IMG/VR virus record: IMGVR_UViG_3300045988_161245
Location: 96,001-160,000 of that record
Reading direction: 5' to 3' (one strand)
DNA: 64,000 nucleotides
Source of the DNA: a virus
A program made the translations under genes and the position numbers. Below, one piece after another: positions 1,498 through 30,037 of this stretch. The notes beneath the pieces are model-generated. The model had not been told where the DNA came from and did not search any database. It saw nothing but the letters and a program-made list of their open reading frames with translations. Within the stretch, counting starts at the first letter, position 1; each line of letters opens with the position of its first letter.

Positions 1498-1505
1498 AAT
1501 CATTC

Positions 1506-1535: not shown

Positions 1536-1566
1536 TTGCCTAAAAATATTAAAGGAGGAAACCGAA

Positions 1567-4456: not shown

Positions 4457-4785
4457 CGAAACACCGTTACGGAAAATTCAGTGATATGCAAATGTCGGAA
4501 ATTAAGAAGACATTACGAGGTTCTATTTTTTTCTTATTACAATGTGCAGATCCTAATACTTCAAGTAAATACCCAGGTAAAGACGTAAATGAAATATTTC
4601 AGAATATTCAGTATGATTTAGATGGATTGAACAGCTTACTCTTCTACCCTGTCGAGTTAGTTCCTGTGATTGAATTATTGGAAGCTGCCAGAGTTACATA
4701 CAATAAGCCGGATTCTAAATTTGAGGATTATAGAAAACTCATTTTGGATGCCGGTGTTGCAGTGCTTAAAATAAAGGAGGATTGA
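4453..4785 (+). CDS. head-tail joining candidate
   Basis: ATGA start/stop overlap with the upstream gene. Assigned by position only. Confidence 0.3.
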   Translation: MTKHRYGKFSDMQMSEIKKTLRGSIFFLLQCADPNTSSKYPGKDVNEIFQNIQYDLDGLNSLLFYPVELVPVIELLEAARVTYNKPDSKFEDYRKLILDAGVAVLKIKED

Positions 4786-4787
4786 TT

Positions 4788-13029: not shown

Positions 13030-14721
13030 ATGCCTAATGAAGATTTTAGTATAAAAACTGGTATAGAGGTTGATGATAGTAAAGTCAGCCAATTAAAAAG
13101 TATTGCTGATGAGCTTGAAAAAACAGCGAAAGCTTTACAGAAAATTAATAACGTAAAATTTAATGGTGATATTTTCTCTGGGTTGACAAATGCAGGAAAA
13201 AATATTCAAAACGTCACTAAAGAGATTGATAAATTACAGAAGTCTGCCAATGGTGCTGGAAAACCATTAAACAACATTGGAAAAGGCGCAGAAAGTATTG
13301 TTTCAGGAAACTCAACGCAGTTTACATTATTAGATTTAACTTCTATTGATGTAATTAAATCAAGTATGAGTGAAATTGCAGACTCTGCTCAGAATCTTAA
13401 AGAAGCATTAGGATCAGAAGTTACTTCCGGATTAATGACTCAGATTGATGCTATGTTGGCGAAAAAAGATGAGTTACAAAATCTTGCGAACATTTTGAAA
13501 AGCAATAAGGAAGATTTAAATAAGGCTGCGAAAGCAACTGGAAGTAGTAATAAGAAGTCTACAAATAACACATCGTCTTCCACTTCTACTAAAACCCCAA
13601 AATATGTAACTGACCAGTCTTATGTTGGTGATTATAAGACACTTGCAGATAATGAAGCTTTTGTTCATACTCTTAGTACGTTTAGACATAATACAACAGA
13701 AGCTCAAGCCGCCATAGAAGAACGAAATAAAGTTATGGCAAGAGTAAACGCAAAAACACCACAGAACACTTCTGAAATAAATGCAAAGCAGAGATTTGAT
13801 GATATTGATAAGACTATCACAGACAATCTTAGTAAATACGGAAATCGAATTCAGAGCGCCTATGATGCTTTCGACAAGATAAAAGTAGACAAAAGTGGCA
13901 TCGCTGGAATTGAAGATGTATTTAAATCCAGTGAAGAACAGATTAATAAATGGGCTACTGCTGTCGCAAAAGGCAAAATGGGCATTAGTGAATTTGAGAA
14001 GAAAGTCGGTGGATTAAGTGGATCTGTTGGTAGTATTGGTAAAATCATTGATCCTGCAAGTATCACAGATGCAAAAATGGAATTGGAAAGTTATCTGAAA
14101 GAACTTACTAATGTACAGGATATTACTTTTAGTGGATTTACAGAAAAGAATGGAATTGTTTCGCTAAAAGGTACATTTAAGGATAGTGCCGGTGAAGCGC
14201 AGACTTTAAGTGTCCAATTAAATACACTGAATGGACAGATTAAAAATCTTGGAACTTCTGTAAAACCTGTTGAAAGTGGACTAAGTAAATTCTTCTCAGG
14301 TTGGAAAGAAAAAATGGTAAACCTTGCCCAATATTTGACTTCATTCCAGGCAATGAATCAAGTTTGGAATACGTTCAAGCAAGGTTTAGAAATAGTTAAA
14401 GAATTTGATACTGCTCTTACAGAAATGCGAAAAGTATCAGATGAGCCAATCAGTAAGCTGAAAGAATTTCAGAAGGAAAGCTTTGATATGGCTAAGAGCG
14501 TTGGTACTACTGCTCTACAGATTCAGAACAGTACCGCCGATTTCCAGAGGCTCGGAGAATCATTCTCGGATGCCAAGCAGTCAGCTGTAAATGCTAATAA
14601 ATTATTAAATGTATCAGAGTTTGATAATATTGATGATGCAACTTCTGCGCTGATTTCTATGAAAGCTGCGTATAGCGAAGTTGCAGAGTCAGATTTGGTG
14701 GATAAGGTCAACCAAGTAGGT
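13030..14721 (+). CDS. tape measure protein, exon 1
   Basis: Coiled-coil-rich. Ends ..DLVDKVNQVG, which joins exon 2 (NNFSISTDGLASALQRSASAL) to rebuild the conserved TMP core motif. The ORF tail SIMPKHMVTCGVLPC is read-through into the intron. Confidence 0.75.
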
Positions 14722-14853
14722 GTCAGTATTATGCCTAAACACATGGTAACATGTGGGGTTTTACCCTGTTGATAACTATATCGGTAAACGTCTAGCGATA
14801 GATAATACCGAGGTAAGATATTTTAGAATTATATTATGATTAAAGGAGAAGTT

Positions 14854-15027
14854 ATGAAAGATAGTAAATTATATTGTTGTTTTTCAGTTCCACTCAGAGA
14901 TTATTTGATTTCAAATGGTCTTAGGTATGAGGTGTGTGCAAAAAATCCAAATACAGATAATTTGATGTGGATTTTTATTCGAACAGAAAAGCTTAATTCT
15001 CTTTTAAAGCAATGGAGTAATAAATAA
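14854..15027 (+). CDS. intron-encoded DUF5659-like small protein
   Basis: SD aaaggag lies before ATG 14854. Paralog of 5..259. Confidence 0.55.
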   Translation: MKDSKLYCCFSVPLRDYLISNGLRYEVCAKNPNTDNLMWIFIRTEKLNSLLKQWSNK

Positions 15028-15063
15028 TATTATTAATTTTTTAATGAAAGGTATGGATTTATT

Positions 15064-16377
15064 ATGGCAAGACCATCTAATAAAAGTTTTGGAACATGGT
15101 GTGAAGAAAATAATTTAACATATATGATTGATTTATGGGATAATAAATTAAATAAATGCTCACCATATGATATTGCTATGTCAACTGCACATAAGTACTA
15201 CTTTAAATGCAATAGAGGTATTCACGAAAGTGAATTAACATCAATATGCAATATTACTGGCGAAAAGCATTATAGAGTACATTGTAGAAAGTGCAATTCA
15301 TTTGGGCAATGGTGCATTGATAATTCTAAACAAGAATTATTGAATAGGTGGGATAAAAAATTAAATAATTTGGATCCGTTTGACGTTCCATATGGTTCTG
15401 GTAAAAAATATTGGTTTACATGTCCTGTAAATAATCCTAACCACCCAAGTGAACAAAAAATGTTATCTAATGTTGTTCGTCAATCAGGTTCACAAAGATG
15501 TTTAGGATGTGAATCATTTGGACAATGGTGTATTGATAATGTGGATAAAGATTTTATGACAAAATATTGGTCCGATAAAAATACTATTAATCCATTTACA
15601 TTTACATTTCGTTCAGATAGAAAAGTATATATTAAATGCCAGAAAACATCATATCATGACGATTATCTAATTTCTTGTGCTAATTTTGTAAAAGGAAAAA
15701 GATGTTCTTATTGCACTCCTAAAGGACCTACTAAAGTACATAAGTTTGACTCTGTTGGATATAAATTCCCAGATATTTTTAAAATATGGTCAAGTAAAAA
15801 TAAGTATACTCCTTATAATTATACTTTTAGATCGAATAAAAAAGTATTATTTGATTGTCCAAAACATGGTGAATATGAACGAAAAATATGTGATATGTAT
15901 TCATCCTATTTTAAGTGTCCAATGTGCGTACAAGAAGAATCAGCTTCTAAATTACAATATAAAGTAAATTTATATTTAGAATCTCTTGGGTATAAACCTC
16001 TTCACGAACATAATTGCAATCTTCTTCCAAGAAACCCACTAACAAATGCAATTCTTCCATATGATAATGAAATACCAGAATTAAAATTAATTATTGAAGT
16101 AAATGGTATGCAACATTATGAAATAAGTCAGTTTACAGTTTTGTCATCTATGTCGTCAGGAAAAACTCCAGAAGAATGTCTTCAGTATCAAGGAGAGAAA
16201 GATGATTATAAAAGACAATATGCTATAGAGCATGGATATTATTTCTTAGAAATACCATATTTTCTTGATATTGCTTCAGAACCATATAAATATGCAATTG
16301 ATATAGCAATTGATCAATGTAAAGAAAAAATAAGAAATTCTAAAATATCAACCGTAACGACTGCAGGATGTATGTAG
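15064..16377 (+). CDS. intron-encoded homing-endonuclease-like protein (repeated Zn-ribbon modules + PD-(D/E)XK/Vsr-like C-terminus)
   Basis: Four repeats of W..N......WD.KLN..P.D...GS.KKYWF.C plus CxxC, resembling DUF4379 (from memory). The C-terminus LPYDNEIPELKLIIEVNGMQH matches the nuclease core of 541..1497. Confidence 0.65.
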   Translation: MARPSNKSFGTWCEENNLTYMIDLWDNKLNKCSPYDIAMSTAHKYYFKCNRGIHESELTSICNITGEKHYRVHCRKCNSFGQWCIDNSKQELLNRWDKKLNNLDPFDVPYGSGKKYWFTCPVNNPNHPSEQKMLSNVVRQSGSQRCLGCESFGQWCIDNVDKDFMTKYWSDKNTINPFTFTFRSDRKVYIKCQKTSYHDDYLISCANFVKGKRCSYCTPKGPTKVHKFDSVGYKFPDIFKIWSSKNKYTPYNYTFRSNKKVLFDCPKHGEYERKICDMYSSYFKCPMCVQEESASKLQYKVNLYLESLGYKPLHEHNCNLLPRNPLTNAILPYDNEIPELKLIIEVNGMQHYEISQFTVLSSMSSGKTPEECLQYQGEKDDYKRQYAIEHGYYFLEIPYFLDIASEPYKYAIDIAIDQCKEKIRNSKISTVTTAGCM

Positions 16378-16544
16378 TAATATATGTGTTGAAGTTATCC
16401 GTCCTTATATTATAAGGATGTAATATACAGTCTGAACTCACGCAATAATCTAAATTTTATGAAACGTGAGACATAGGTAGAAATGCCTATGCGCCATACT
16501 AATTTTGTGTGGTTAGTAGAGCTTGTCTCGAAAGTAACAGCTTG

Positions 16545-17321
16545 AATAATTTTTCCATCTCCACCGATGGGTTAGCATCAGCATTACAAAGATCAGCATC
16601 TGCTCTTAAAACAGCAGGTAATAATATAGACGAAAGTATAGGATTAATTACGGCAGGCAACCAGGTTGTGCAGGACCCAGAATCCGTTGGTGCCGCAATG
16701 AGAACGATTGCTCTCCGTCTAACAGGAACAAGCGTTGCCGTTCAGCAATTGCAAGAACTTGGCGAAGAGACAGATGGTGTTGTAACAACTGTTTCTAAGC
16801 TTAGAGACGTAATTATGAGCGCAACAAAAGTCGCTTCTAATGGTTTTAAAGGTATAGATATTCTTGATAATAACGGAAACTACCGTTCAACGGCAAGTGT
16901 ATTACAGGATATAGCAGATATCTATAATGAGATCGAAGAAACCGATAAAAAGACCAAAAGTAACAATGTAAATCTTTTGCTTGAAACAATTGCCGGCAAA
17001 AACCGCGCAAATACAGCTGCTAGTATATTGCAGTCACCTGATATTTTAAGGGAAGCAATCGAGTCATCAAAAAATGCGAAAGGCTCGGCAGATCGTGAAA
17101 ATGAGACGTATTTATCTTCGTTAGAAGCTCATATCACCCAACTTCAAACACAGCTCCAAGAGCTTGCAACAGTAACTATCAACTCAGATATGTTTAAAGG
17201 CGTAATAGATACAGCAACCGCCTTTCTTAACATCGTAACTCAGATCCTGGATAAACTTCCACTGCTCTCAACAGCAATTGGTGGTCTTGCAGGATTTAAA
17301 CTTTCAAAAGCAGGTCTGGGT
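16545..17321 (+). CDS. tape measure protein, exon 2
   Basis: NNFSISTDGLASALQRSASALKTAGNNIDESIGLITAGNQVVQDPESVGAAMRTIALRLTG is the typical TMP core. The ORF tail KQLNIKLVSI lies beyond the proposed splice site. Confidence 0.75.
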
Positions 17322-17733
17322 AAACAGCTTAACATAAAGTTAGTTTCAATTTAAAATTTTATCGTAGTTAAGATGCCCATTTGATATGCTGCTGTCATAA
17401 TCGCGACAGTTAGTATAGAACTTGTTCAAGATGGTGATTCGACACCTATTGACAGACCTTTAGCCTTAGAGCTATAAAGCCGAATATCGGAGGAAGCCGT
17501 AATCCACATCACTGTGGTACCTTAGTTCTGAAAATGAATGAAAGGGATATATTGAAGATGGTAGTTCCGACACGTTAGCAAGCACATATGTTTAAATTTA
17601 CAAAAGTGGATGATAAATTCACGAATAAAACGCAATTATAAAAGGAAGAAAGAAATAGAGAGTAGAAAGTTGCAGGTAACAACTCTCCACTCTCTTAAAA
17701 GACTAAAAGGAGATTACAAAAATATGAACTAAA

Positions 17734-17907
17734 CTATTTATTATTTTGGGTGTCATCCTTATAGAATTCTCCAGACATGTCAAATCCTTTCAGGAATCCA
17801 AAATGGATGTGAAAGTTTTTCATGTTCTTAGATGGTATTCTGCGGATTAGCGACCATAGGATTAATAATCCTACAAGAGTTAAAACGAATAGAAATACAT
17901 CTTCCAT
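17734..17907 (-). CDS. small hydrophobic protein (57 aa)
   Basis: Perfect SD aggaaggaggtga lies before the ATG. One TM segment (FLFVLTLVGLLILWSLI). Below the ORF-track cutoff. Confidence 0.35.
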   Translation of the reverse strand: MEDVFLFVLTLVGLLILWSLIRRIPSKNMKNFHIHFGFLKGFDMSGEFYKDDTQNNK

Positions 17908-18364
17908 ATCTCACCTCCTTCCTGTACGAAAGTATCAAGAAAGAGATTTGATGTTGGGAGAATCCCATAGAAATGAATATAATATTTAGAGTACTTCATT
18001 TTAGACAATCTCATTTCTGGTACAAATTGCGTACCAATAATTCAATACTACATGACGACTGTCAGATATACTGTCGTGCAACGGATCATAATGTAGAACT
18101 GTGATCACAAGTATATCTGACTTTGATTGTAGTATAATTGTCTATTTTTGTAAATCCAGAACATATGTGTTTTCATGTAAAAGTGTAGTTTTACAGTTAA
18201 CGTGCGAGAGGCTGACAAAGCATATTATATGTGGCGTTACAACATATAGTATAATATACAGTCCAACCAGGGAAAGCCTGGGTAGCATGATGGATCGAAT
18301 AGTATGGATAGAACCGTGAGGTTACTACTCGCTTACTACCTGAAATGCACTAACTGCACATATT

Positions 18365-18392
18365 CACCACGGCTTGCAAACGTGGTGTTTTT
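18365..18392 (+). terminator. intrinsic terminator inside the intervening element
   Basis: 7-bp stem caccacg/cgtggtg followed by TTTTT. Confidence 0.6.
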
Positions 18393-18424
18393 ATTATTTT
18401 ATTGAAAAAGAAGGTGAATATTTT

Positions 18425-18616
18425 ATGTGTGTTAAAATTTTTGATCATATTTTTTTAATAAGTAATTATGAGGTTATAGATTATTATAATAATGAAGAGG
18501 TAAATAAATTACATAGCCAAATATTACTTTCACCTCAAGATATAAAGGAGTATTTTGAATGGCTCTTTATAAAAGGTAAACATTATTTTTGCGGTCATCC
18601 AGGAGGATTATTGTGA
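18425..18616 (+). CDS. small partner protein, copy 1 (paralog of 29819..30037)
   Basis: SD agaaggtga. MCVKIFDHIFLISNYEV..QDIKEYFEWL compares with MYVKFFDCELFIDSHEI..NNVKDLVEEFL. Its 3' end overlaps the convergent hydrolase gene by 9 nt. Confidence 0.5.
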   Translation: MCVKIFDHIFLISNYEVIDYYNNEEVNKLHSQILLSPQDIKEYFEWLFIKGKHYFCGHPGGLL

Positions 18617-19150
18617 TCTTAAAACAACTGTATTAATATTTGTATTTACATTATTATTTACTTTTGCTCTATCATTTATTATTATTTTCATATCATTAAT
18701 AATGTTAGAAAAATCTTTTTGAGTATCTACAAATAAATCAAAGTCATAATCACCTATAGCCATATAATTTATCGGTAGTAATTTACTAATACGACATTGA
18801 TGTTTTTCAGTACCTATAAGATATATTTGTGGTATTTTACACTTATTAAATCCTACAATAAGTAAATGAATTCCATCATTTGATGCATGATTTTCTTCAT
18901 AATCTTTCACTTCTTTATATACGCATTCTACATCATTTGTGTCTAATAATATTGATTTAATTTCTAAATATATTTTTAGGCAATCAAAATCATTTTTACT
19001 ACCAGCATAAGCAATAACAACTTTATCACTAATTTGATAAATCTTATTCTCGTTTTCAGTAACTATATTACTGTTTTTATCAACGATTCTGGAATCACCG
19101 CACACAATGATATCATTATCTTTAGATATTGCAGCAATAACTAGACTCAT
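18608..19150 (-). CDS. HslV/proteasome-beta-like Ntn hydrolase, Ser1 type, copy 1
   Basis: M-SLVIAAISKDNDIIVCGDSR..NKIYQISDKVVIAYAGSKNDFD..YMAIGD aligns with HslV [49 protein letters not shown]. Confidence 0.65.
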   Translation of the reverse strand: MSLVIAAISKDNDIIVCGDSRIVDKNSNIVTENENKIYQISDKVVIAYAGSKNDFDCLKIYLEIKSILLDTNDVECVYKEVKDYEENHASNDGIHLLIVGFNKCKIPQIYLIGTEKHQCRISKLLPINYMAIGDYDFDLFVDTQKDFSNIINDMKIIINDRAKVNNNVNTNINTVVLRSQ

Positions 19151-19189
19151 GTTATACCTCCAATTTTATATTTTAAATATGTTAAAAAA

Positions 19190-19621
19190 TCATTTAAATA
19201 TTCCATTGGCAATATCGGTAATAAATTTAGGATCAGTAACAGCTACTTTAGCAACTTCTACACATACTGCTGAGATCATATTTATAGAAGAAATACCTAC
19301 AGATTTTAATTTAGCTTTACTCTTCCTCCATATAGAGTCAGGTCTAATTGATTCTGCTAATTTATGTCCTTCGAATGTAACATCATAAATTTTACAGTTT
19401 TCATATTTATAGTTATCATCTATAGAATACGATCCTTCTAAGAATCTTCCGTCAAATAAGTTTTTCACACAATATTGTACATCCTCTTCAGTGTATTTGC
19501 CTGAAAAGTGATCCTTTATATCTTTTAACATAATCCGCTTGAAATCTCCATTAAGTTTCATATTATCTTGTTCTTCAATATATAAGAGTACATCTCTAAA
19601 ACAATCATAGTTTAATATCAT
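19190..19621 (-). CDS. DUF2513-like winged-helix protein
   Basis: SD ggagg lies before ATG 19621. CFRDVLLYIEEQ.. and ..VTFEGHKLAESIRPDSIWRK match the DUF2513 pattern (..GHdFLd.iR....W). The family name is from memory. Confidence 0.6.
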   Translation of the reverse strand: MILNYDCFRDVLLYIEEQDNMKLNGDFKRIMLKDIKDHFSGKYTEEDVQYCVKNLFDGRFLEGSYSIDDNYKYENCKIYDVTFEGHKLAESIRPDSIWRKSKAKLKSVGISSINMISAVCVEVAKVAVTDPKFITDIANGIFK

Positions 19622-19652
19622 ATTCAATCCTCCATAGAAAGGTCGTGAAAAT

Positions 19653-19922
19653 ATGTTGTGGTCAATTTCTGAGACAGAAAATATTGCAACAAAAATTATT
19701 AAATTGTTATACGAAAATAATTGTACTGATGAAGGTGATATTGAAACCACATTTACATTAGTACGAAATCATTTTAAGAATATGTCCATTGATGACATTA
19801 TTAAATTCGAAACAACTGGTAAGATGCCGGAAATTGACGTTCATGGTAATCTTACTCAAATTATAAAACAAGTTTCTAGTCAAATAGCTGATGAGTTTTT
19901 GGAAGAACATGGTATTAAATAG
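19653..19922 (+). CDS. hypothetical acidic protein
   Basis: ORF with a weak RBS gaaagg. Antisense to the minus-strand operon. Its coding status is uncertain. Confidence 0.35.
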   Translation: MLWSISETENIATKIIKLLYENNCTDEGDIETTFTLVRNHFKNMSIDDIIKFETTGKMPEIDVHGNLTQIIKQVSSQIADEFLEEHGIK

Positions 19923-20106
19923 GTTGTTTTCCAGGTTTCCAAGAATACCAACAAGCTGCACACCTGTTCACGGTTTTATTACTTCCTAAGAAACCAGTTA
20001 TCAACGAGTAACCACGCTGTCCGGTAGTGATCTGAGTGCTTCCACAGCGAGGACAGTGAACAGTATTGGTTTTTGTATTAATTTGTATTAGGTTTATTAT
20101 ATTTTT
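19915..20106 (-). pseudogene. orphan Zn-ribbon coding remnant without a start codon
   Basis: The open frame encodes ..TNTVHCPRCGSTQITTGQRGYSLITGFLGSNKTVNRCAACWYSWKPG. This resembles the C-terminus of 21006..21545 (HCPKCNGTNFTP..GFATNKVELVCNNCGY). It has no ATG/GTG/TTG start and overlaps the upstream stop in another frame. Confidence 0.4.
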
Positions 20107-20764
20107 CTATATGTTCCTTTATTGTAGTCTTGACTAAATTATGTAATTTAATTTGATAATTAAGCAATACATTATAATTATATTTTGTTGTTGACAAAAA
20201 ATATTCCGTTATCTCTATAAATAATGAACGAAACATATCTGGTACATACTTATAACTATAAACATATTCGATATTATGCTTTTTAAGTGATGTCAAATAT
20301 CCAACACAATAATATAAAAGTCTTTCGTCACAATATACCTCACCTTTTAAAATAGGATCATTTGGTAATATAAAACTCTCAGTTAAATTTACTATTCCTT
20401 TATCTACATATTTTTTATATGAGAAATTTTCTATTTTTAAATGTATATCCATTTCAACTTCTGAAGCGTGAACTTCAGAATATATGTACATTAATTTAAT
20501 AAAATCTTCAAGCGGATAATTTAATAACTGAGTAGAATCATATACATGTGTGAACTCGTGAAAGAAAATTCCTTTGTATATTTTTGATTCATCTAATTGT
20601 TTGTTAACTTTTAGTATATATTTTTGATTATACAATTCCAATGTATTGAATTGTGCGGCTGCACAATCTCTTTTGTCAACTTCAATATATTCTTGTATTT
20701 CTGGAATTTCATAATATAACTCGTTGTATTCCTTAAATATTTTATCAAGATACTCTTTGTTCAT
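20078..20764 (-). CDS. HExxH zincin-like metallopeptidase
   Basis: FFHEFTHVYD motif. SD aggaga lies before ATG 20764. The family is unassigned; an ImmA/IrrE-like assignment is only a guess. Confidence 0.55.
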   Translation of the reverse strand: MNKEYLDKIFKEYNELYYEIPEIQEYIEVDKRDCAAAQFNTLELYNQKYILKVNKQLDESKIYKGIFFHEFTHVYDSTQLLNYPLEDFIKLMYIYSEVHASEVEMDIHLKIENFSYKKYVDKGIVNLTESFILPNDPILKGEVYCDERLLYYCVGYLTSLKKHNIEYVYSYKYVPDMFRSLFIEITEYFLSTTKYNYNVLLNYQIKLHNLVKTTIKEHIEKYNKPNTN

Positions 20765-20793
20765 TTTTATCTCCTGCATAGAAAGGAATTATT

Positions 20794-21000
20794 ATGATAA
20801 AAAACAAAATGCTAATTATTAGATTAAAACGTGATATATTATATCTAAAGTTTAAGAGTTTAAAAGTAGATATTAAGTTTGCAATTAAAAAAGTATATTA
20901 TAGAATTTTCGACAGCAAAAAGTACCAAAATCTCCTACAAACTCAAAAAGATATGCAAGAGATTTTGGATGCAATTGACGACAGAATGAACTGGGTGTAG
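20794..21000 (+). CDS. hypothetical basic protein
   Basis: RBS gaaagga. Antisense to the minus-strand operon. Its coding status is uncertain. Confidence 0.3.
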   Translation: MIKNKMLIIRLKRDILYLKFKSLKVDIKFAIKKVYYRIFDSKKYQNLLQTQKDMQEILDAIDDRMNWV

Positions 21001-21005
21001 TAGCT

Positions 21006-21545
21006 TTAATTTTCAGCCTTCATTCTATAACCACAGTTGTTGCACACTAACTCCACTTTATTAGTAGCAAATCCCATGAATAGTCCATATTTCTTCCTAA
21101 CCGGTGTAAAGTTGGTGCCGTTACATTTTGGACAATGACGAGTGTTAACTTCCTGCTGTTTTGCATTTTGTTGTGCTAAATATTCATTGTATCTTTTATC
21201 TAATTCTTCTTCAGCCTTGGCATTTATAATGTTCATTTGATTAGTATATTTGATGATGTCATTTGTATATAAATCGAACATTGTTGCAACAAAACCAGGA
21301 TCATTATTACCATATTCACAGAAATTAAACATATCGTTAAAACTCATATTAGGAACTGGTGTTAATTTATTTCCACATCCAGGACATAAATCTAAACTTT
21401 CACCACTAAGAATACCTGCATAATCTTTAGGTTTATTTGAACTTATTGAAAACATAGATTTTGTGCGTCCTTGTGGTTGTTTAAGTTTATTTCCACTTTT
21501 TAAAATGCATTCTCTACAATAATATATAATCTTATTAGAACTCAT
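21006..21545 (-). CDS. double Zn-ribbon protein
   Basis: CRECI..CPGC at the N-terminus and CPKC..CNNC at the C-terminus. SD ggaggt. Confidence 0.5.
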   Translation of the reverse strand: MSSNKIIYYCRECILKSGNKLKQPQGRTKSMFSISSNKPKDYAGILSGESLDLCPGCGNKLTPVPNMSFNDMFNFCEYGNNDPGFVATMFDLYTNDIIKYTNQMNIINAKAEEELDKRYNEYLAQQNAKQQEVNTRHCPKCNGTNFTPVRKKYGLFMGFATNKVELVCNNCGYRMKAEN

Positions 21546-21578
21546 ACGCCAACCTCCAAAATATAATATTATAATGCA

Positions 21579-21607
21579 AGTATAACATTATATTCTCCAA
21601 TATTCAA
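21579..21607 (-). promoter_or_regulatory. sigma-70-like promoter of the minus-strand cargo operon
   Basis: TTGAAT-N17-TATACT on the minus strand. The -35 element lies 3 nt from the proposed 3' splice site. Confidence 0.45.
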
Positions 21608-21610
21608 TTG

Positions 21611-24600
21611 GTCTTTAACTACGATAAAGCAACAGGAAAAGTTGGAAGTAATAAAAATAATTTAGAAAATGCATTAACAGAAGTAAAAGATTTCTTTCTA
21701 AAAAAACAGGATATAGAAAAGCCATATACACTTAGCAAAGATGAATATTCATTTTTTGAGAGAATGAAAAAAGAGCTTTCTGATTCTCAGTTAAATGGAT
21801 CTGCGGAAGATTCTAAAGATGCAATGCTACAACTGGCAGAAGAAATTACAGGTGCAGATAGCTCATTGGTCAAATATATCCAAGACACAGATGTAGCGTC
21901 TGTTTCTCAAGTCGGTTTTGCTCAATCACAAAAAACAGTAATTCAAGGAACAACTAAATTTAGTGCTGTAATGAAAACGGCCGGTGGAGTAGCAAAATCA
22001 TTTGTAGCTACCCTTGGAAGTATGGCTGTAGCCGCCGCAGCAGCTTGGGCTATCGGTAAAGTAATTGAGGGTATTGATTATCTTTATCATTACGATGAAA
22101 ATATCATCAAAGCTGGACAGGAAGCAAAGGATTCCATTGACAGTACATTTAAAAGTTTCGAAGAAGGTAAGCAGTCTATCATGGACCTTGGCTCTTCATT
22201 TGGCAATCAGACAGAGCAGATAAAAAATACCGGTGATGCAATCGATCAAGTTGCCGAAAAATATGTAGAGCTTCGTAAGGGAGTAAATCAGAATACAAAC
22301 GAGAATGTATCATTATCTACAGACGAGTATCAGCAATATATTGATCTCAGTAGTAAGCTTGCCTCTCAGTTTCCTGGTCTGGTAGCAGGTTATGATAGTC
22401 AGGGAAATGCTGTATTAAATCTTGCTTCCAATGCAGATAAGGCTGCTGATAGTATTCGTAATTTATATGAAGCACAAGTTTCTTCTGCAAATGTTGATAT
22501 GGGGAAAAATCTACAAGCAACATATGATGGTGTTGTTACACAGACAAGTCAATATGCTGAGGATATCCAGAAAAAACGTGATGAGTTAGAACAATTAGAT
22601 ACTGATATTTCTGAGAACAAACGTAGTATTTTAACATATGGAAGTAACAATTTTGAAGTACAAGGGCTGTATGGTGATAAAGAAAATGTTATTACTGATG
22701 TTCTAAAAGAGAATGGACTGTATAAAGAAAATACAGGAGATGACGGAAGTATTTGGAACTTCTATGCCGAAGGTCTCGCTGATAAGTCAAAAAAAGAAAT
22801 AGATAGGATGAATGAACAGATTACAGCTGGTTTGGAATCCTATAACTTGTCACTAGAGACTCAAAGAAGCCAACTTCAGAGTGAAATTAACTCCTACGAT
22901 TTAATGATTGAAGATCAATGGCGTAGTATGGCACAATCTCTTGGAAACTATCTTCAGACATCAAAATCATTTAATGAACTTGATGATAGTCTTCAAAGTG
23001 CATTTCTTGCCAACATTTCAAACCTTGACTTAACTGCCTTAAATGATCCAGATGGTAAATACCAAGGACAGGTGCTTGATTTCTTGTATGGAGAATTCAT
23101 TGGACCAATGTCTCGGTTTAGTGCGGATGTACAAGAAAGTCTTGCAGATGCATTACAGATTGATCCTTCTAAATTGACTATTGATGAGTATAAGTCACAA
23201 GTTGATGAAGCATTTAATAAAGCATTTCCAAAGGAAGAAGATGCAGATAAACGAGATAGATTCAAAAACGCTTATGGAATTGATTCTTCTATTGAGGATA
23301 TGGAGGATAATGCATCTCGTCTCAAAGAAGCATATGCAGATTTTCCAAATGCCAGTGATTTTATTGACCATATGCAGACAGGTGATCTGTCAATTGCTGC
23401 ACAGTTAATTGATAATGGTTCAGTTGATATTGAGAAAGGCACAGATGGATTAGTTTCTGCCATTGAAAGATATAAGAAAACGGTAGCTGAAGCAAAATCT
23501 GATACAACTCTTGCTTCTGTTCTTGGCGATTCCGATAATGAAATCTCATCTTCTATTGATTCTTTACAGTCAGATATTTCTTCTTTATCAGATACTCTTA
23601 CCAAGCTTAAAACAGGTGAGTTCAAAGATTCAGATCTCACCGACCTTATTCAACAGTTTCCACAGTTAGCCGATCAAACAGATAATCTTCAAGAAGCTAT
23701 CTCCAATCTTCAGGCAGATAAATTAAAGTCTACTTTGAAAAAAATTGACGATTCTATGGATGGAGCTTCTGATGAAGAGTTAGCTAATGCACAAAAATTA
23801 AAAGATTCTTTAATTAAGTCAGTTGACCTATCTGATATTAATTCAGACAAGATTACAGAATCAATCAAAAGTGCTTTTGAAGGTGATGGCGGAAGTAGGT
23901 ATATTGCTGCAGAACATGGAGCAAAAGCTGCTGAAGAATACAACCAAGCATTTTCAAAAGAACTTAAAAATAGTGCTGGACGAGAAGCTTTCTATAAGGC
24001 AACATTAAATCAAGATGCTGTAAAACAGGGACCTGATGCAATACGTGAATTATATAATCAGTATTTAAAGACAGCCAAAGACATCATCCAAGATACAGAT
24101 ATCCAATCACAGCTTACAAATTATCAGGATAAATACCAGTCACTCTATCAAGCTCAGAAAGATCTAAAGAACGGTCTAATGACTGGTTCTACCAAAAAGA
24201 CATTTCTGGACAAGTTTCCAGATCTTGCAAAGTATGCAGGAAACACTGAAACACTCTCTTCTGCTATTGATGATCTGATGGATTCTATGGACAGTGATGT
24301 AACTAACCAGTTTACAGATGCTATTAAAGCTCTTCAGGATGCCGGACAGTATGCAGATGCAAGTGCATTACAATCTTATGTTGAAGCTGTTTTAGATGGT
24401 GCCCATGATATCGAGGGTGCTTATCAGAAGATCGCAGGTCTTAAAATTCCTACACCTAAGTACGCAGAACTTAAAGAAGCTCTTGAATCTTCAAACGAGG
24501 GTGATCTTTACAATGAACTTCTCTCTCAGTATAAAACCGCAAAAGAGGCATGGGAAAAAGGTGAAGTTGGTACAGATGACTTTAAGTCTTTTGCTTCTAT

Positions 24601-27600
24601 TATTTCTCCTACAGGTGTATCTGATGCAGTAAACTTTGGTGAGAATCAAGCAATGTTTGAAAGATACTTCCAGGATACATCTACTGGTGTTGAGAACTTC
24701 TTAGAAGATCTACAGAAGCTTGACCTTGCTTCTAATGAAAGTGGTCATTGGACCAGTACATTAGGAAATAACCTTGATGAAATGCGAGACGCTGCACAGA
24801 GACTTAATATGGGCTTTGAACCATTTATGATGATGTTTGGTCGTCTCGAAGATTATGGTGCTACTACTGACTTCTTCACTACGGAAGAGGATGGGCAACA
24901 GCATTTATCTGATCTCTATCAGCAGATTGCAGAAAAGAAACAAAAACTTGCAGAAATTAAAGCAGATCCGGATTTAGCTGGCGATCAGTCTGCTATTGAT
25001 TCTCTCAATAAAGATTTAGATGAACTTTATGCGAGAGTAGAAAATACAAAAACTGGAATTGAAGAGCTTCCGGACAAAGCAACTTATTATGAAGCAAAGA
25101 ATCTCGAACAGGCTAAATCAGTTATCACTCAGATGCAGGACGAAATTAATCAGGCAGCTGCAGAAGGAAATGATGAATTAGTCAAAATTCTTGAAAAGAC
25201 TCGTGATCAATATTTAAAAGAAAACGGATATATTCTTAAAGAACAGCCACAAGGTCCAACTCAGCAAGGGACTATTGAAAATCCGTTAGCAAGAGAATTC
25301 ACAAATCCAACTAAATTTGGCGATTATGAGACAGTCATCAAGAAGATTCAGAATGCGACAGATGAACAGACATCTTCTCTTGAGAAAAATCTTAAAGTAT
25401 TAAGCCAATATTCTGAATCTCAGCTCAGTGGAATCAATTTATCCGATGGACAGTATGATACCGGTTTTGAGGATGCCGAACAAGCACTTGACAACCTTTC
25501 TAGCACATTTGGTCTTACAAAAGATCAAGCGGTACAGTTAGCAGCTGTTCTTTCTGATATGGGGCTGATTAAAGCAACTCCTAAAGTTGACTTAACTACA
25601 GTTCAGGATCAGATTGATAATGCAAAAGATGAGTTACAGGATAGTAATATTACTGTTGATTTAGATTTTGATATTTCTACTTCTAGTAAAGAAGAACTTC
25701 AAAAAAAGAGTCAAGAAATTCAGAATGAGCTGAATAATAACGCATCTCTTTCTGATTCTCAAAGAACATCTTTACAGGGAGTAAAAGATTCTGTTGATAA
25801 CCAGGTTGTTACGCTTACAGTACAGGAAAAAGTTGAAAAAGATGGTGATGTAGACGAGCTTCTTGCAATGGATGATCAAACACTTGCCACAACACTTGAC
25901 CTTGATGTTAATAATGCTGACCAATTATCAACAGCTAGGGATGAGCTACAATATATTAAAGACAATCAAGATGCTCAAATTGATATGACTGTTAAACTGG
26001 ATGAGACACAGTTTAATCAGCTATTAGGTGACGGTGAGAACGCTTCTATTGATGTTACAGCAAACAATGAAGAAGCAAAAGAAAAGATAGATGAAGCTAA
26101 GAACTATGCAGAAAGTCAGAAACCTCAAATGAAAATTGATGGCAACAATGATCCTGCTATCAATAAAGGTACTTCTGCTACTCAGATGATCAACAACATG
26201 ACTGGAATTATTAAGGTTAATGCTGACACATCGGGTATGGCAAGTGCTATTAATTCTGAATTGTCAAAGCCTCATACTATCAATATTTCCGCAAATGTGT
26301 CTACGCATGTTAGTGGTGGAACAGGTAAATCTACAGGAACTATGATTAGTGTCGCTCATGCCGATGGAACTGCTTATAATGTTATCAATTATACTCCTGC
26401 TCACGCAAGCGGAAATGTAACACTTTCACATGATGAAACTGCTTTAGTTAACGAAGAAGGCATTGGCGCTGAATCAATTGTGCGTGATGGTAAATGGATG
26501 ATTATTCCTGGTGGTGCCCATTTTGAAAATCTAAAAAAAGGTGACTTAATCTTCAATAAAAAGCAGACATCCGAGCTTATCAATTCAGGACATGTTACAT
26601 CTGGAGGTGGACATGCTAGAGCTTATGCAAATGGTACTGTTGGTGCTTATGCAGGAGGTAATTCTGGTGTTTATTTAAACTGGGATAAAAATCGTACTCA
26701 AGTTGGCAATCAGTCAACATCATCTCCCTCTAATTCCACAATTACCGATAAAAATACAACTTCTGTTAAGAAAAATACAGACACCGTAAATGACAATACC
26801 GAAAAGATAAAAAAATCTACTAAGGTATATGACTGGGTAGAAACTCGTATTAAGCATTGGTCTGATCAGGTTCAAAAAATCGCTGATAAAATCACCGACT
26901 ATATTAAGAAATCACTTAAAACATCTTTGCTCAAACAGCAAATTCGTAAGATGAACTATGAGATTGGTTCAAATGAAAAGGGTGCAAAAGCCTATATGAA
27001 AAAGGCTAACTCTATAGCAAACGAGTACACTTATTACAATAGTGATGGCGAAGAAATTAAAACCAATGTACCAAAGAAATATCAGAAGCTTGTCCAAACA
27101 GGTGCTTATCGTATTGAAGATATGGACACTTCAACAGATCAGGGTAAGGCTCTGGCAGAGGCTATCGATCAGTATAAGACATATTATGACAAAGCACAGG
27201 ATTGTAAACAGGCTGTTGTTGATCTGAAAAAAGAGCAGCTGGAATTGTTTGAACAGTGGGCAAATATGCCAACTGAAAAAGCAGAGCAGAAATTGGAACG
27301 TTTACAAAACGGATTTAATGGATTGAATGCAACTCAGTCAAGGTTATCTGCTGTTCAGACAGGTGGATCAACACAAAAAGCTATAGCAGACGCTGCTACT
27401 GCAAGTTACGAATCAGCACAGGTAGTTACAGAAAAAGCACAATCAAATCTTGACACAGCAACTGCGAAAGCAGATAAGGCAACTACAGCTGTAAATAGAA
27501 AGAAAAAAGCACTTCTTAAATCAAAAGGTCTTACGAATGAGCAGAAAAAAGCTATTAAATCCGGAAAGACTATTGATACCAGTAAGATTACTAACAAGAC

Positions 27601-29755
27601 TACGAAGAAACGTGCCGAAGAGTATAATTCTGCAGTTAAAAATAAAAAGAAAGCAGATTCTAAAAAGAAAACGGCTCAGACTAAATTTAACACTGCAAAT
27701 AAGAATTCTTCATCTCTTAAGACAGATGCAGAAACAGCAATCGCCGGATATCAGGAAGGAAACGAACTTTCCTATATGGATTCCTTAACTGATCAGAATG
27801 TGACACAGACAAAGCAAGCTGCAGATATTAACAACAAGGCTTGGGAGGAAACTAAGAAAAATCTTAACGCACAGGAGAAAGCCAAGAAACAAGCAGACGA
27901 TAAGGTTAGTAAAAAAGCTAAAGCTATTAAGAAAAAGTTTGGTAGTAAACTGAGTGATAATCAGAAAAAGAAATTAGCAGCAGGTAAAGAAATAAATGTC
28001 GATAAGATAAAAGACAAGTCTCTTAAAAAGGCTCTTACAGCATATAATAAATATGTTACTACTGCAGCCGAAACAGAACAGAAATTAAATATTGTCACAG
28101 ATGCAGAATCAACAGCGGCAGCTAATGCAGCGGAATCACAGACAGAAGCAGCTAAAGCCACAGTCGAAGCTATTCAAAGTAAATTTGATAATGCGAAGAC
28201 GTATTATGAAGGATTGTTAGGATATCAGGAAAAGTATAATGAAATGGAAGAAGCAAACATTGATTTATACAATGCTCATGGAAATTATGAGCGTTCTTCT
28301 GATTATGAGATTAAGATCTCAAATACTGAAAGTCTGAGAAATATTGCACAGGATAAAGTTGATGAGCTTGAGAAAAGATTTCAAGAAGGTGTTGATAATG
28401 GCACAATTGTAGAAGGATCTCAGGAATGGATTAATATGAAATCCGAGATTGTAGAAGCAAAAAAAGCTGTAACCGATTACGACACAAGTATTGAAAATCT
28501 GAAACAGCAACAAATTGGTGTTTATTATGAAGAACAGTTTGATCGTGCAATAGAGAAAATTGATCAGTTCAAGGACCGTATTGATATACTAAATGAAATC
28601 ATCTCTGATGATATGAAAGTTGATAAGAATACTGGACTACTTACAGAATTGGGAGCTACTTCTGTAATGTTGAATAGAAATCAGTTTTCTGCAAATCAGA
28701 AAGAAATACAAAAGCTTCTTGAAAAAGAAAATGATGTGAAAAAACGATACGCTAATGGCGAAGATATGTCTTCTGAATTTGGCGAAAAGACTTATGATGA
28801 ATATATAAAAGACATTCAGTCTAAATATAATTCTTTAATTTCATCAAATAGTTCTCTTCAAAATGATATGCTCTCTCTTGTCAAAAATCAGGCTCAAGCA
28901 GAACTTGATGCTCTTAATAAAGTAATATCTAAGCGTAAGGAAGCCCTTTCCGCAAAGAAAGACTATTACGATTACGATAAAACTTTAAAGGATAAGACTA
29001 AAGACATTCAGATCCTTGAACGTCAAGCGGCAGCTCTCCAGGGTTCAACAAACGCTGAAGATAAAGCACGTTTGGCAAAGATCCAGGAACAATTATCAGA
29101 TGCAAGAGAAGATCTTTCTGATACTATGACAGACCATGCTTTCAGTATGCAAAGTGATGCGCTTGATAAATTATCCTCAGATATGAGTGATGATTTTGAC
29201 AAATGGTCTAACGACATAAGCTCTAACGTAGAGAAAATGAGTAAAGCTATTAATGAAGCAGTTTCAAATTCTGCTCTTAGTAATGCGCAGGTTCTCAATA
29301 ATCTTTCTACTATTCTGAAAAATGTTGGATTAACAGATGAGCAGGTTAACTCTACATTATCAGGACTTACCGGTTATGCTTCCGGAACTGACTATGTTCC
29401 AAAATCTGGTATGTACAGAGTTAACGAAAATGGAATGGAATCTGTACTGTCAAGAAAATACGGTACTCTCACATTCTTAAATCAGGGCGATAAAGTATTT
29501 ACAGCAGACTTCACCAAGAGACTTATTGATAATGCAGGTATTGCCACACAGAGTAGTCAACCACAATTTGGCGAGATGTATAAGGAACTTATGAATGCGA
29601 TTACCAACACAAACAATCAGTCTTATGAACATAGTACAGTTTACAATATTGTTGTAAATGAAGCTACTGATGCAAACGCAGTAGGTGATATTGTCGTTAA
29701 GAAGATCGATGCATACGAAAAGAAGCGTGTAAGAGATTTTAAGAGTCTCAGATAA
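21611..29755 (+). CDS. tape measure protein, exon 3
   Basis: The frame is open from 21575, but there is no SD or ATG near that point. The product is a 2714-aa coiled coil with a hydrophobic segment (GGVAKSFVATLGSMAVAAAAAWAIG). It carries the TMP C-terminal-type motif twice. Confidence 0.7.
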   Translation, partial: VFNYDKATGKVGSNKNNLENALTEVKDFFLKKQDIEKPYTLSKDEYSFFERMKKELSDSQLNGSAEDSKDAMLQLAEEITGADSSLVKYIQDTDVASVSQVGFAQSQKTVIQGTTKFSAVMKTAGGVAKSFVATLGSMAVAAAAAWAIGKVIEGIDYLYHYDENIIKAGQEAKDSIDSTFKSFEEGKQSIMDLGSSFGNQTEQIKNTGDAIDQVAEKYVELRKGVNQNTNENVSLSTDEYQQYIDLSSKLASQFPGLVAGYDSQGNAVLNLASNADKAADSIRNLYEAQVSSANVDMGKNLQATYDGVVTQTSQYAEDIQKKRDELEQLDTDISENKRSILTYGSNNFEVQGLYGDKENVITDVLKENGLYKENTGDDGSIWNFYAEGLADKSKKEIDRMNEQITAGLESYNLSLETQRSQLQSEINSYDLMIEDQWRSMAQSLGNYLQTSKSFNELDDSLQSAFLANISNLDLTALNDPDGKYQGQVLDFLYGEFIGPMSRFSADVQESLADALQIDPSKLTIDEYKSQVDEAFNKAFPKEEDADKRDRFKNAYGIDSSIEDMEDNASRLKEAYADFPNASDFIDHMQTGDLSIAAQLIDNGSVDIEKGTDGLVSAIERYKKTVAEAKSDTTLASVLGDSDNEISSSIDSLQSDISSLSDTLTKLKTGEFKDSDLTDLIQQFPQLADQTDNLQEAISNLQADKLKSTLKKIDDSMDGASDEELANAQKLKDSLIKSVDLSDINSDKITESIKSAFEGDGGSRYIAAEHGAKAAEEYNQAFSKELKNSAGREAFYKATLNQDAVKQGPDAIRELYNQYLKTAKDIIQDTDIQSQLTNYQDKYQSLYQAQKDLKNGLMTGSTKKTFLDKFPDLAKYAGNTETLSSAIDDLMDSMDSDVTNQFTDAIKALQDAGQYADASALQSYVEAVLDGAHDIEGAYQKIAGLKIPTPKYAELKEALESSNEGDLYNELLSQYKTAKEAWEKGEVGTDDFKSFASIISPTGVSDAVNFGENQAMFERYFQDTSTGVENFLEDLQKLDLASNESGHWTSTLGNNLDEMRDAAQRLNMGFEPFMMMFGRLEDYGATTDFFTTEEDGQQHLSDLYQQIAEKKQKLAEIKADPDLAGDQSAIDSLNKDLDELYARVENTKTGIEELPDKATYYEAKNLEQAKSVITQMQDEINQAAAEGNDELVKILEKTRDQYLKENGYILKEQPQGPTQQGTIENPLAREFTNPTKFGDYETVIKKIQNATDEQTSSLEKNLKVLSQYSESQLSGINLSDGQYDTGFEDAEQALDNLSSTFGLTKDQAVQLAAVLSDMGLIKATPKVDLTTVQDQIDNAKDELQDSNITVDLDFDISTSSKEELQKKSQEIQNELNNNASLSDSQRTSLQGVKDSVDNQVVTLTVQEKVEKDGDVDELLAMDDQTLATTLDLDVNNADQLSTARDELQYIKDNQDAQIDMTVKLDETQFNQLLGDGENASIDVTANNEEAKEKIDEAKNYAESQKPQMKIDGNNDPAINKGTSATQMINNMTGIIKVNADTSGMASAINSELSKPHTINISANVSTHVSGGTGKSTGTMISVAHADGTAYNVINYTPAHASGNVTLSHDETALVNEEGIGAESIVRDGKWMIIPGGAHFENLKKGDLIFNKKQTSELINSGHVTSGGGHARAYANGTVGAYAGGNSGVYLNWDKNRTQVGNQSTSSPSNSTITDKNTTSVKKNTDTVNDNTEKIKKSTKVYDWVETRIKHWSDQVQKIADKITDYIKKSLKTSLLKQQIRKMNYEIGSNEKGAKAYMKKANSIANEYTYYNSDGEEIKTNVPKKYQKLVQTGAYRIEDMDTSTDQGKALAEAIDQYKTYYDKAQDCKQAVVDLKKEQLELFEQWANMPTEKAEQKLERLQNGFNGLNATQSRLSAVQTGGSTQKAIADAATASYESAQVVTEKAQSNLDTATAKADKATTAVNRKKKALLKSKGLTNEQKKAIKSGKTIDTSKITNKTTKKRAEEYNSAVKNKKKADSKKKTAQTKFNTANKNSSSLKTDAETAIAGYQEGNELSYMDSLTDQNVTQTKQAADINNKAWEETKKNLNAQEKAKKQADDKVSKKAKAIKKKFGSKLSDNQKKKLAAGKEINVDKIKDKSLKKALTAYNKYVTTAAETEQKLNIVTDAESTAAANAAESQTEAAKATVEAIQSKFDNAKTYYEGLLGYQEKYNEMEEANIDLYNAHGNYERSSDYEIKISNTESLRNIAQDKVDELEKRFQEGVDNGTIVEGSQEWINMKSEIVEAKKAVTDYDTSIENLKQQQIGVYYEEQFDRAIEKIDQFKDRIDILNEIISDDMKVDKNTGLLTELGATSVMLNRNQFSANQKEIQKLLEKENDVKKRYANGEDMSSEFGEKTYDEYIKDIQSKYNSLISSNSSLQNDMLSLVKNQAQAELDALNKVISKRKEALSAKKDYYDYDKTLKDKTKDIQILERQAAALQGSTNAEDKARLAKIQEQLSDAREDLSDTMTDHAFSMQSDALDKLSSDMSDDFDKWSNDISSNVEKMSKAINEAVSNSALSNAQVLNNLSTILKNVGLTDEQVNSTLSGLTGYASGTDYVPKSGMYRVNENGMESVLSRKYGTLTFLNQGDKVFTADFTKRLIDNAGIATQSSQPQFGEMYKELMNAITNTNNQSYEHSTVYNIVVNEATDANAVGDIVVKKIDAYEKKRVRDFKSLR

Positions 29756-29818: not shown

Positions 29819-30037
29819 ATGTATGTAAAATTTTTTGATTGTGAATTATTTATTGATTCACATGAAATAAAAATAAAAAATAAAAGAGGAAGTTCCGGAC
29901 AATCTTATGGCGAACATTTTATTCCACCAAATAATGTAAAGGATCTCGTTGAGGAATTTCTAGTTCCAACTGTGTATCAACATAAGTGTATTGAAGAACT
30001 TATGAAAAGAAAACCAGATCCTAACATTAAGTGGTAG
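29819..30037 (+). CDS. small partner protein, copy 2
   Basis: SD agaggtg. Paralog of 18425..18616. Its 3' end overlaps the convergent hydrolase gene by 11 nt. Confidence 0.5.
   Translation: MYVKFFDCELFIDSHEIKIKNKRGSSGQSYGEHFIPPNNVKDLVEEFLVPTVYQHKCIEELMKRKPDPNIKW

Follow-up and report, generated by a model that had tools for sequence, protein, structure and literature searches.

A hypervariable two-strand gene island in a predicted group I-type intron of a phage tape-measure gene

The group I intron of the phage T4 nrdD gene (sunY), reportedly described by Michel et al. in 1992, is said to carry its open reading frame (ORF) downstream of the ribozyme core and to end at a remote 3′ splice junction. 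In IStrons, which are common in Clostridia, the 5′ end is formed by a group I core, behind which come insertion sequence (IS) genes and a remote 3′ splice site (PMC10690162). Here we analyze a locus of comparable predicted build in the tape-measure protein (TMP) gene of a phage, located in positions 96,001 to 160,000 of the IMG/VR virus record IMGVR_UViG_3300045988_161245. This stretch of 64,000 nucleotides (nt) is called the window, and coordinates refer to it. An earlier note had proposed that the locus is a promoter-driven minus-strand accessory operon, combining a zinc-ribbon protein, an HExxH metallopeptidase, a winged-helix protein and a proteasome-like hydrolase. The explanation that we consider likely, with appreciable doubt, is a hypervariable two-strand cargo island of independently assorting cassettes, which lies in the second of two group I-type introns of the TMP gene. 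The intervening sequence is read as a predicted group I intron whose 3′ splice site is remote and whose build is IStron-like.

The TMP coding sequence is present on the plus strand in three pieces (13030–14772, 16509–17354 and 21608–29755). In two distant relatives, L033 and L039 (related contigs are designated by L numbers), the TMP is encoded by a single ORF of 3,677 and 4,068 amino acids (aa), respectively, which aligns across both gaps. The annotation of three “TMP genes” should probably be corrected to one gene of approximately 3,537 codons. The second gap has the following features:

17317–17321, plus strand: end of exon 2, UGGGU, the 5′ strand of the predicted P1 helix; splicing would follow U17321 at a codon boundary (...KAGLG)
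17322–21610, plus strand: putative group I-type intron 2 of 4,289 nt, with a 5′ core, the cargo island and a remote 3′ splice site
17322–18395, plus strand: conserved structured-RNA block (putative ribozyme core), interrupted by an antisense 57-aa gene
17370–17379, plus strand: internal guide, AAGAU (P10 part) followed directly by GCCCA (P1 part), invariant in all variants
21610–21615, plus strand: terminal intron residue G21610, then GUCUU of exon 3, with predicted P10 pairing to AAGAU (17370–17374)

All variants share the exon 2 end UGGGU, which pairs with GCCCA (17375–17379) to give P1, including a U17321·G17375 wobble. At the other end of the intervening sequence, G21610 is also invariant, and the three variants of the exon 3 start, GUCUU, AUCUU and AUUUU, can all form P10 with AAGAU. 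Within the first 100 nt, no site other than the guide can pair with the ends of both exons; shuffling yields such a site in 166 of 20,000 sequences (0.8%). Splicing would join GGUCUGGGU to GUCUUUAAC (in longer form, AAGCAGGTCTGGGT to GTCTTTAACTACGATAAA), and this predicted junction is in frame (...SKAGLG followed by VFNYDK...). Directly behind ...GLGKQLN (after 17333), the exon 2 frame loses its conservation through indels of 7, 8 and 12 nt. Exon 3 begins with ATG or TTG depending on the variant, behind upstream sequence that has diverged, and it lacks a Shine–Dalgarno sequence (SD), whereas most genes of the window have one.

The core block is 96–97% identical beside an exon 2 protein of only 63% identity, and its helices covary. 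Comparison with the 77%-identical core copy of L031 revealed three pairs changed on both sides in P8 (18222–18232 with 18242–18252) and two in the GAAA-capped P9 (18267–18271 with 18277–18281). Together these are five double substitutions with 100% of cells paired, and slid controls gave 0. The order of core elements (GGCUGAC, P8, AUAAUAUA-CAGUC, P9) mirrors that of the Rfam consensus (P3′, P8, GAAGAUAUAGUC, P9), and the AUAUA-CAGUC motif resembles this consensus as seen in two Rfam-scored introns elsewhere in the window. The order of exon 2, structured RNA, minus-strand 57-aa and zinc-ribbon genes and exon 3 is kept in L053, a relative from a Kineothrix metagenome-assembled genome whose TMP is 59% identical; splice sites of this homologue were not definable by eye. 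An exact search with a 22-mer of the core returned this TMP site only in IMG/VR.

The core also contains a perfect 12-bp inverted repeat (18058–18069 and 18113–18124; GTCAGATATACT and AGTATATCTGAC). Part of one arm, CAAGTATA, is repeated in a conserved 16-mer, TATAATGCAAGTATAA, near the 3′ splice site (approximately 21570–21585), which suggests an alternative pairing. RNAduplex, applied to the 3′ tail and the core, gave no informative pairing, as the sequence is AT-rich. Two other assignments of the RNA were rejected. A group II intron would be at odds with the absence, by eye, of a GUGYG start and a domain V and with the lack of any scoring group II family in Rfam; large phage non-coding RNAs such as GOLLD and ROOL likewise had no Rfam match.

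The first gap of the TMP gene has a similar layout:

14722–16544, plus strand: first TMP gap, read as intron 1, a clean split between ...VNQVG and NNFSIST...

Here too, U is the last base of the 5′ exon and G that of the intron, and a guide (ATTAT followed by GCCTA, 14728–14737) pairs with both exon ends in the same layout as in intron 2, as found in about 0.5% of shuffles. Splicing would give the junction of CAAGTAGGT and AATAATTTTTCC. The cargo of intron 1 consists of a 63-aa DUF5659 ORF and a 437-aa DUF4379/HNH-like endonuclease, and the latter differs among relatives (398, 401, 437, 454 or 559 aa). L015 and L053 have an intron at other positions of the TMP gene. Elsewhere in the window, two group I introns that score with Rfam (5354–5660, 82 bits; 5700–5987, 72 bits) lie 39 nt apart and split a gene (4782–5462 and 5983–6750), which implies a micro-exon of 39 nt.

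Several observations weigh against an intron in the second gap, and some of these would also suit an alternative: an ordinary intergenic moron island between two separately translated TMP genes, in which the structured RNA is a relic or unrelated and exon 3 uses its own ATG or TTG. No Rfam model, including Intron_gpI, matched 14000–22500 (E≤1), 17300–18450 (E≤10) or the L053 homologue, and Rfam over the window gave no intron or other RNA family in the island region. Intron_gpI does find the two introns at 5354–5987, and the antisense 57-aa gene that splits the core may defeat this model. P7 is ambiguous, since either GACUG (18055–18059) or GGCUG (18210–18214) could pair with CAGUC. In every variant the boundary itself is marked by an ATG or TTG codon, and a plus-strand TATAAT lies 37 nt upstream, so that exon 3 may initiate separately, while a plus-strand hairpin and T-run at 18365–18400 could terminate late transcripts, although the T-run is absent in L031. 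The ribozyme would, moreover, need a 3′ splice site 3.2 kb away, and neither an intron-less allele nor a spliced junction was present in the IMG/VR and JGI contigs searched. Finally, the P1/P10 match that is rare in the first 100 nt arises in 13% of shuffles when the whole 1.08-kb block is considered; the guide pairing thus supports an intron but does not prove it.

Against separate translation, exon 3 would have to start without an SD in a genome of mostly GGAGG-type sites, and it is implausible that a major structural protein would start at an SD-less TTG. Related TMPs are also continuous over the region in which the split lies, the invariant guide can pair with the ends of both exons to give an in-frame junction, and the core covaries and is more conserved than the adjoining exon. 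An intergenic moron island is therefore judged unlikely, if worth keeping in mind, and the intron context of the second gap is taken as supported, if unproven, by these features of the sequence.

The island between the conserved block and the last TMP segment, together with the flanking control elements, contains the following features:

21579–21607, minus strand: putative sigma-A-type promoter, TTGAAT-N17-TGnTATACT, in the predicted 3′ tail of the intron; motif with a conserved −10 block
21006–21545, minus strand: double zinc-ribbon protein Zn179, 179 aa with four CxxC pairs
20794–21000, plus strand: basic 68-aa partner gene, divergent from the HExxH gene and convergent with the zinc-ribbon gene
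20078–20764, minus strand: HExxH zincin-like protein, 228 aa, HEFTH
19915–20106, minus strand: start-less fragment coding for a C-terminal zinc ribbon; its frame is +1 with respect to the HExxH ORF end
19653–19922, plus strand: acidic 89-aa partner gene, divergent from the DUF2513 gene
19190–19621, minus strand: DUF2513 winged-helix protein, 143 aa
18608–19150, minus strand: HslV/proteasome-like N-terminal nucleophile (Ntn) hydrolase, 180 aa
18425–18616, plus strand: 63-aa partner gene, convergent with the proteasome-like gene
17734–17907, minus strand: p57, gene for a predicted 57-aa membrane protein inside the core block, with SD AGGAGGTG
17695–17657, minus strand: intrinsic terminator downstream of p57, a 17-bp stem with T-run, conserved

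The minus-strand ORFs that the earlier note had listed are real genes. GGAGG-type ribosome-binding sites precede all four complete ones, which are under purifying selection, with ratios of nonsynonymous to synonymous divergence (dN/dS) of 0.05–0.55 where divergence suffices to measure them (Zn179, 0.05–0.07 in two informative comparisons; DUF2513 gene, 0–0.23). The supposed zinc-ribbon remnant proved to be a start-less zinc-ribbon coding fragment, and the position of the genes, antisense to the tail operon and within an intervening sequence of the TMP gene that has group I intron features, was likewise borne out. What did not hold was the description of an uninterrupted, co-oriented gene string: three conserved plus-strand genes are interleaved, and a further minus-strand gene downstream, p57, had been overlooked.

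The 63-, 89- and 68-aa plus-strand ORFs are called as genes in metagenome contigs, and their families hold their length while identity drops to approximately 40%. Across 26 copies, the 68-aa family is found on the plus strand every time at identities down to 39%, and its dN/dS is 0.09–0.29 in five of six comparisons. For the 89- and 63-aa genes, dN is 0 against dS of 0.02–0.06 and 0.13–0.17, respectively. The 68- and 89-aa genes are arranged head-to-head with their large neighbours, with starts 30 nt from the HExxH start codon and 31 nt from the DUF2513 start codon, while the 63-aa gene and the proteasome-like gene overlap tail-to-tail by 9 nt at their 3′ ends. Both head-to-head spacers (19622–19652 and 20765–20793) carry CCTTTCTATG(G/C)AGGA, which contains two back-to-back ribosome-binding sites and may be a shared regulatory or recombination element. 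p57 has a dN/dS of 0–0.08, and a homologue is retained in the distant relative L053.

The promoter postulated in the earlier note fared less clearly. TTGAAT-N17-TATACT is present at 21607–21579 and has a TG before the −10 element; the motif class is not enriched locally, as 29 promoter-like sites were found in the region compared to 31.8 expected from shuffled sequence. However, the −10 block TATACTTGCA(T/A)TATA is kept in five allele types that are otherwise completely diverged around the promoter, and this site is favored for that reason. Minus-strand transcription likely ends at the terminator motif at 17657–17695.

Turnover of the cargo was assessed in 35 related contigs, using the region from the end of the conserved block (18395) to the start of the last TMP segment. 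The cassettes turn over, being exchanged, duplicated and lost among relatives: 27 distinct versions of 1,371–6,840 bp were found, with approximately 18 gene orders and breakpoints at gene boundaries. The HExxH gene occurs without DUF2513 in 9 of the 27 versions (including L015, L018, L025, L026, L029, L036 and L037), DUF2513 without HExxH in L008, L030, L034 and L038, and the proteasome-like gene with neither in L040 and L041. The mobile units are pairs of a large and a small gene: the proteasome-like gene with a 63–69-aa gene, the 63-aa family being its constant companion; DUF2513 with the 89-aa gene, also constant companions, although a 135-aa homologue replaces the latter in L031; HExxH with the 68-aa gene as its constant neighbour; and a retropepsin-like protease (Pfam Asp_protease_2, 2e-7) with a 96-aa gene. 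A 138-aa membrane protein and an XRE-type helix-turn-helix protein form other mobile units. Only two cargo genes are constant, namely the zinc-ribbon gene, which adjoins the last TMP segment in every version, and the 57-aa gene; both are kept in L053. In L038 (IMGVR_UViG_7000000624_000073), an IS21-like pair (479 and 253 aa) and two more ORFs are inserted in the cargo pocket, which thus tolerates large insertions.

The phage (approximately 210 kb) comes mainly from Lachnospiraceae-associated gut metagenomes and is present in hundreds of samples; complete-looking contigs are 207–222 kb long, and exact island proteins were found in approximately 180–240 sample blocks of a public assembly index. 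In L007 (ena:ERZ28758804 contig_817), the phage region sits in a contig of 1.17 Mb, a hint that the phage can integrate as a prophage and may therefore be temperate. Searches of GenBank phages returned nothing related: tblastn with the HExxH, Zn179 and proteasome-like proteins found no match in 50,697 records, and megablast with the region gave no hit.

The HExxH protein belongs to a family that counts 163 members at E≤1e-3 in a set of 1.84 billion cluster representatives. In 54 representatives with 20–42% identity to the window protein, H69, E70, H73, D76, S96 and E97 are invariant; one close cluster carries NEFTH. No Pfam family model matched the protein (nearest, Peptidase_M76 at E 0.14), Peptidase_M78 (ImmA/IrrE) was not detected, and PDB sequence searches with the single sequence and with a profile gave no match. 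Distant family members show weak PhageMetallopep and SprT-like Pfam matches. The AlphaFold2 model (predicted local distance difference test, pLDDT, 92) is most similar in BFVD to a phage “Lethal factor” protein (template modelling (TM) score 0.74, E 8e-6), and in PDB to gluzincins (M61, ACE, LTA4H) at TM scores of 0.3–0.4 with non-significant E of 0.1–1. It is probably a zincin peptidase of an undescribed family. Fusions occur in this family, with a C-terminal zinc ribbon in L015 (306 aa; 838–1758, minus strand, of the extracted cargo region) and in P0113, and with a nucleoside 2-deoxyribosyltransferase-like domain (Pfam, 7.5e-7) in P0066.

The 143-aa protein matches Pfam DUF2513 (PF10711; E 8e-16, 58.7 bits, gathering cut-off 29.6) and PHROG 585 (4e-19); its PDB sequence search gave noise only, and the literature searches made gave no papers on DUF2513 or PF10711. 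The 180-aa protein matches Pfam Proteasome (PF00227; E 2.5e-8, 34.2 bits, cut-off 22.4) and, in PDB sequence searches, proteasome beta subunits and HslV. Its N-terminus, MSLVIAAISKD, is conserved in homologues, and removal of Met1 would leave Ser2 as the predicted N-terminal nucleophile.

These data bear directly on the proposal of the earlier note, in which a single minus-strand defence or anti-defence operon encodes a zincin and winged-helix sensor pair that controls the Ntn hydrolase. The minus-strand genes are indeed co-oriented downstream of a conserved promoter-like site, and the gene order of the window is the commonest among the contigs sampled. The exact string recurs in many contigs of the same lineage, so that conservation was confirmed to this extent, yet it is one of approximately 18 orders. 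Opposite-strand genes and a gene fragment lie in between, gene content is mosaic over the 27 versions, and each large gene has its own constant small neighbour. HExxH, DUF2513 and proteasome-like genes assort independently among relatives, which rules out an obligate HExxH/DUF2513/hydrolase system. The resemblance to ImmA/ImmR or CapP/CapH that had been suggested also failed, since there is no Peptidase_M78, DUF2513 is not an XRE-type repressor and the two genes assort independently; they are, in addition, 456 nt apart, across the ribbon fragment and an opposite-strand gene, which does not fit a protease/repressor pairing. The statement that the combination matches no known defence system was upheld by PADLOC (PADLOC-DB 2.0), with 0 families at E≤0.1 for six proteins, and this lack of a match, too, speaks against a defence operon. 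Overall, a single operon of this kind now seems very unlikely.

The zinc-ribbon proteins combine a hypervariable N-terminal half with a nearly invariant C-terminal ribbon of two types, and all of their zinc-ribbon Pfam matches are under the respective cut-offs. The model of Zn179 (pLDDT 75) has two ribbons linked by a long helix, and a fold search returned generic TFIIS/Rpb9/NrdR-type ribbons only. A role of Zn179 as a His-Cys-box or HNH homing endonuclease was rejected on this basis and for want of a conserved His. The fragment at 19915–20106 is of the second ribbon type, which also forms the C-terminus of the 181-aa proteins in L008 and L034 and of the L015 fusion. In relatives, start-less ribbon fragments of 31–63 codons are found behind many different minus-strand genes, and could reflect joints from recombination within conserved ribbon coding sequence, or decayed fusions. 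Programmed +1 frameshifting that joins the HExxH ORF to the ribbon fragment was considered and set aside in favor of a joint or decayed fusion, as no slippery site was seen.

A hypervariable block (21318–21995) takes in part of each of two coding sequences, namely the N-terminal half of Zn179 and approximately the first 130 codons of exon 3, together with the promoter and splice-site region between them. Within this block the exon 3 protein is 44–60% identical, against >90% beyond it, a pattern that may stem either from co-conversion around the intron or from co-variation between the zinc-ribbon protein and the TMP. Tandem zinc-ribbon paralogues (179, 166 and 70 aa) were also observed in a variable island of another SPbeta-like phage (L021–L024), where their neighbours, which differ between contigs, include ArdC-N/MPTase-PolyVal, PBECR4, SocA_Panacea and Abi_2.

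A paralogous copy of one cassette lies outside the predicted intron, directly after the TMP stop codon, and is present in some relatives and absent in others:

29819–30037, plus strand: small partner gene of the second proteasome-like module
30027–30587, minus strand: proteasome-like gene of this module, convergent with its partner

The occurrence of the same proteasome-like module at two sites could indicate that the two-gene cassettes are self-stabilizing pairs (toxin and antidote, or enzyme and inhibitor), kept by the cost of their loss and not by a benefit to the phage. Several features would be consistent with such pairs: a large gene always comes with its small partner, the alleles of the two diverge in step, the layouts are head-to-head or tail-to-tail with overlapping ends, and the large partners are proteases. 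However, convergent and divergent layouts are unlike typical type II toxin–antitoxin operons, orphan small genes occur in L030 and L032, and no match to known toxin–antitoxin families was obtained. The correlated divergence of partner genes is explicable by simple linkage alone, a point that detracts from the argument for self-stabilization and from our own reading of the cassettes alike. We consider self-stabilizing pairs to be quite improbable.

The clustering of three protease classes in and directly behind the TMP gene might instead point to a function in tail assembly, for example in the processing of the very long TMP, which would explain their location; TMP processing is known in other siphoviruses. 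Yet each protease cassette is dispensable in some relatives, the proteases have SDs and a promoter-like site of their own and are encoded on the strand opposite to the late operon, and the relatives with uninterrupted TMPs (L033 and L039) match none of these genes in the DNA around the TMP gene. A role in tail assembly is thus extremely unlikely.

For the favored reading, a variable cargo island within intron 2, the following mechanism is proposed. The 5′ splice site would lie after U17321 and be followed by a core of approximately 1.07 kb (17322–18395), a cargo pocket (18396 to approximately 21580), a short 3′ tail with the antisense promoter, the terminal G21610 and exon 3. Late transcription would cross the 4.3-kb intron, and splicing would join 17321 to 21611 to give a TMP of approximately 3,537 aa. 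The promoter at 21579–21607 would drive the larger minus-strand genes as far as the terminator at 17657–17695, probably early or in lysogens, while the small plus-strand genes would be expressed solely from late sense read-through RNA. Given that the start regions of partner genes overlap, the minus- and plus-strand programmes should exclude each other. The cassettes may act in phage–host or phage–phage conflict, with the small proteins modulating their larger partners; we infer this role from the rapid turnover of the cargo, its richness in proteases and the occurrence of zinc-ribbon paralogues beside ArdC, PBECR4, Panacea and Abi_2 elsewhere.

A more far-reaching view can be put forward only tentatively: that a self-splicing intron in an essential tail gene provides a protected landing pad for swapped conflict genes. 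Splicing would render insertions in the pocket harmless to the tail, and cassettes could then swap freely, among them proteases of three classes, accompanied by their cognate small proteins, and zinc-ribbon proteins whose N-terminal halves are hypervariable. Antisense transcription from the promoter in the 3′ tail would cross the ribozyme core and might link cargo expression to TMP splicing. The always-present zinc-ribbon and 57-aa membrane proteins could be new intron-associated factors that take the place of the missing homing endonuclease.

If splicing does occur, the element would count as a group I intron of a phage that carries a multi-gene, two-strand, hypervariable island in place of a homing endonuclease or a transposon, an arrangement that we did not find described in the papers searched, and introns could then serve as safe harbours for accessory genes within essential genes. 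The island also offers a compact set of lineage-specific gene pairs as candidates for defence or counter-defence activity, including a new zincin family, zinc-ribbon proteins whose heads vary and two further peptidases, one an HslV-like Ntn peptidase of the Ser type and the other retropepsin-like.

In comparison with known systems, the locus is closest in build to IStrons such as CdISt1 of Clostridioides difficile and CboIStron, with which it shares kilobases of protein-coding cargo and, as predicted here, a 5′ core, a far 3′ splice site and restoration of the interrupted gene by splicing. Unlike these IS200/605 or IS607 elements, it has no TnpA or other transposase domain and no TnpB domain in any cargo protein, and no omega-RNA. 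Its cargo is hypervariable and consists of unrelated genes, mostly on the opposite strand, its core does not score with Rfam Intron_gpI, as IStron cores do, and in IMG/VR it is confined to the one TMP site. The T4 nrdD intron is similar in having its core upstream of the ORF, a 3′ splice site far from the core and a phage host. That intron has one sense-strand homing endonuclease ORF of <1 kb, whereas the island described here has 1.4–6.8 kb and 3 to 13+ genes on both strands, with no recognizable endonuclease.

Of the protein-level comparisons, ImmA/ImmR and CapP/CapH resemble the locus in that an HExxH protein and a helix-turn-helix-type protein are found in the same mobile-element region, but M78, an XRE repressor, adjacency, co-inheritance and a neighbouring regulated system are all missing here. 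The proteasome-like protein shares with HslV and 20S proteasome beta subunits the Pfam Proteasome domain, a hydroxyl residue after Met and aligned GD/K positions. It differs from them by Ser in place of Thr at position 1, the absence of an HslU partner, the pairing with a 63–72-aa protein and the restriction to this phage lineage.

Hypervariable accessory-gene hotspots and morons of phages (for example, bioRxiv 10.1101/2024.10.15.618418) have in common with the island a fixed site with conserved flanks and content that varies among close relatives, their own promoter and terminator, an orientation that is often antisense to late genes, and lineage-specific families. Unlike usual hotspots, the island lies inside a gene, in an intervening sequence that would have to be excised from the RNA before a tail could be built. 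The island is a variant of element types already known: accessory-gene hotspots of phages, and group I introns whose 3′ splice site is remote.

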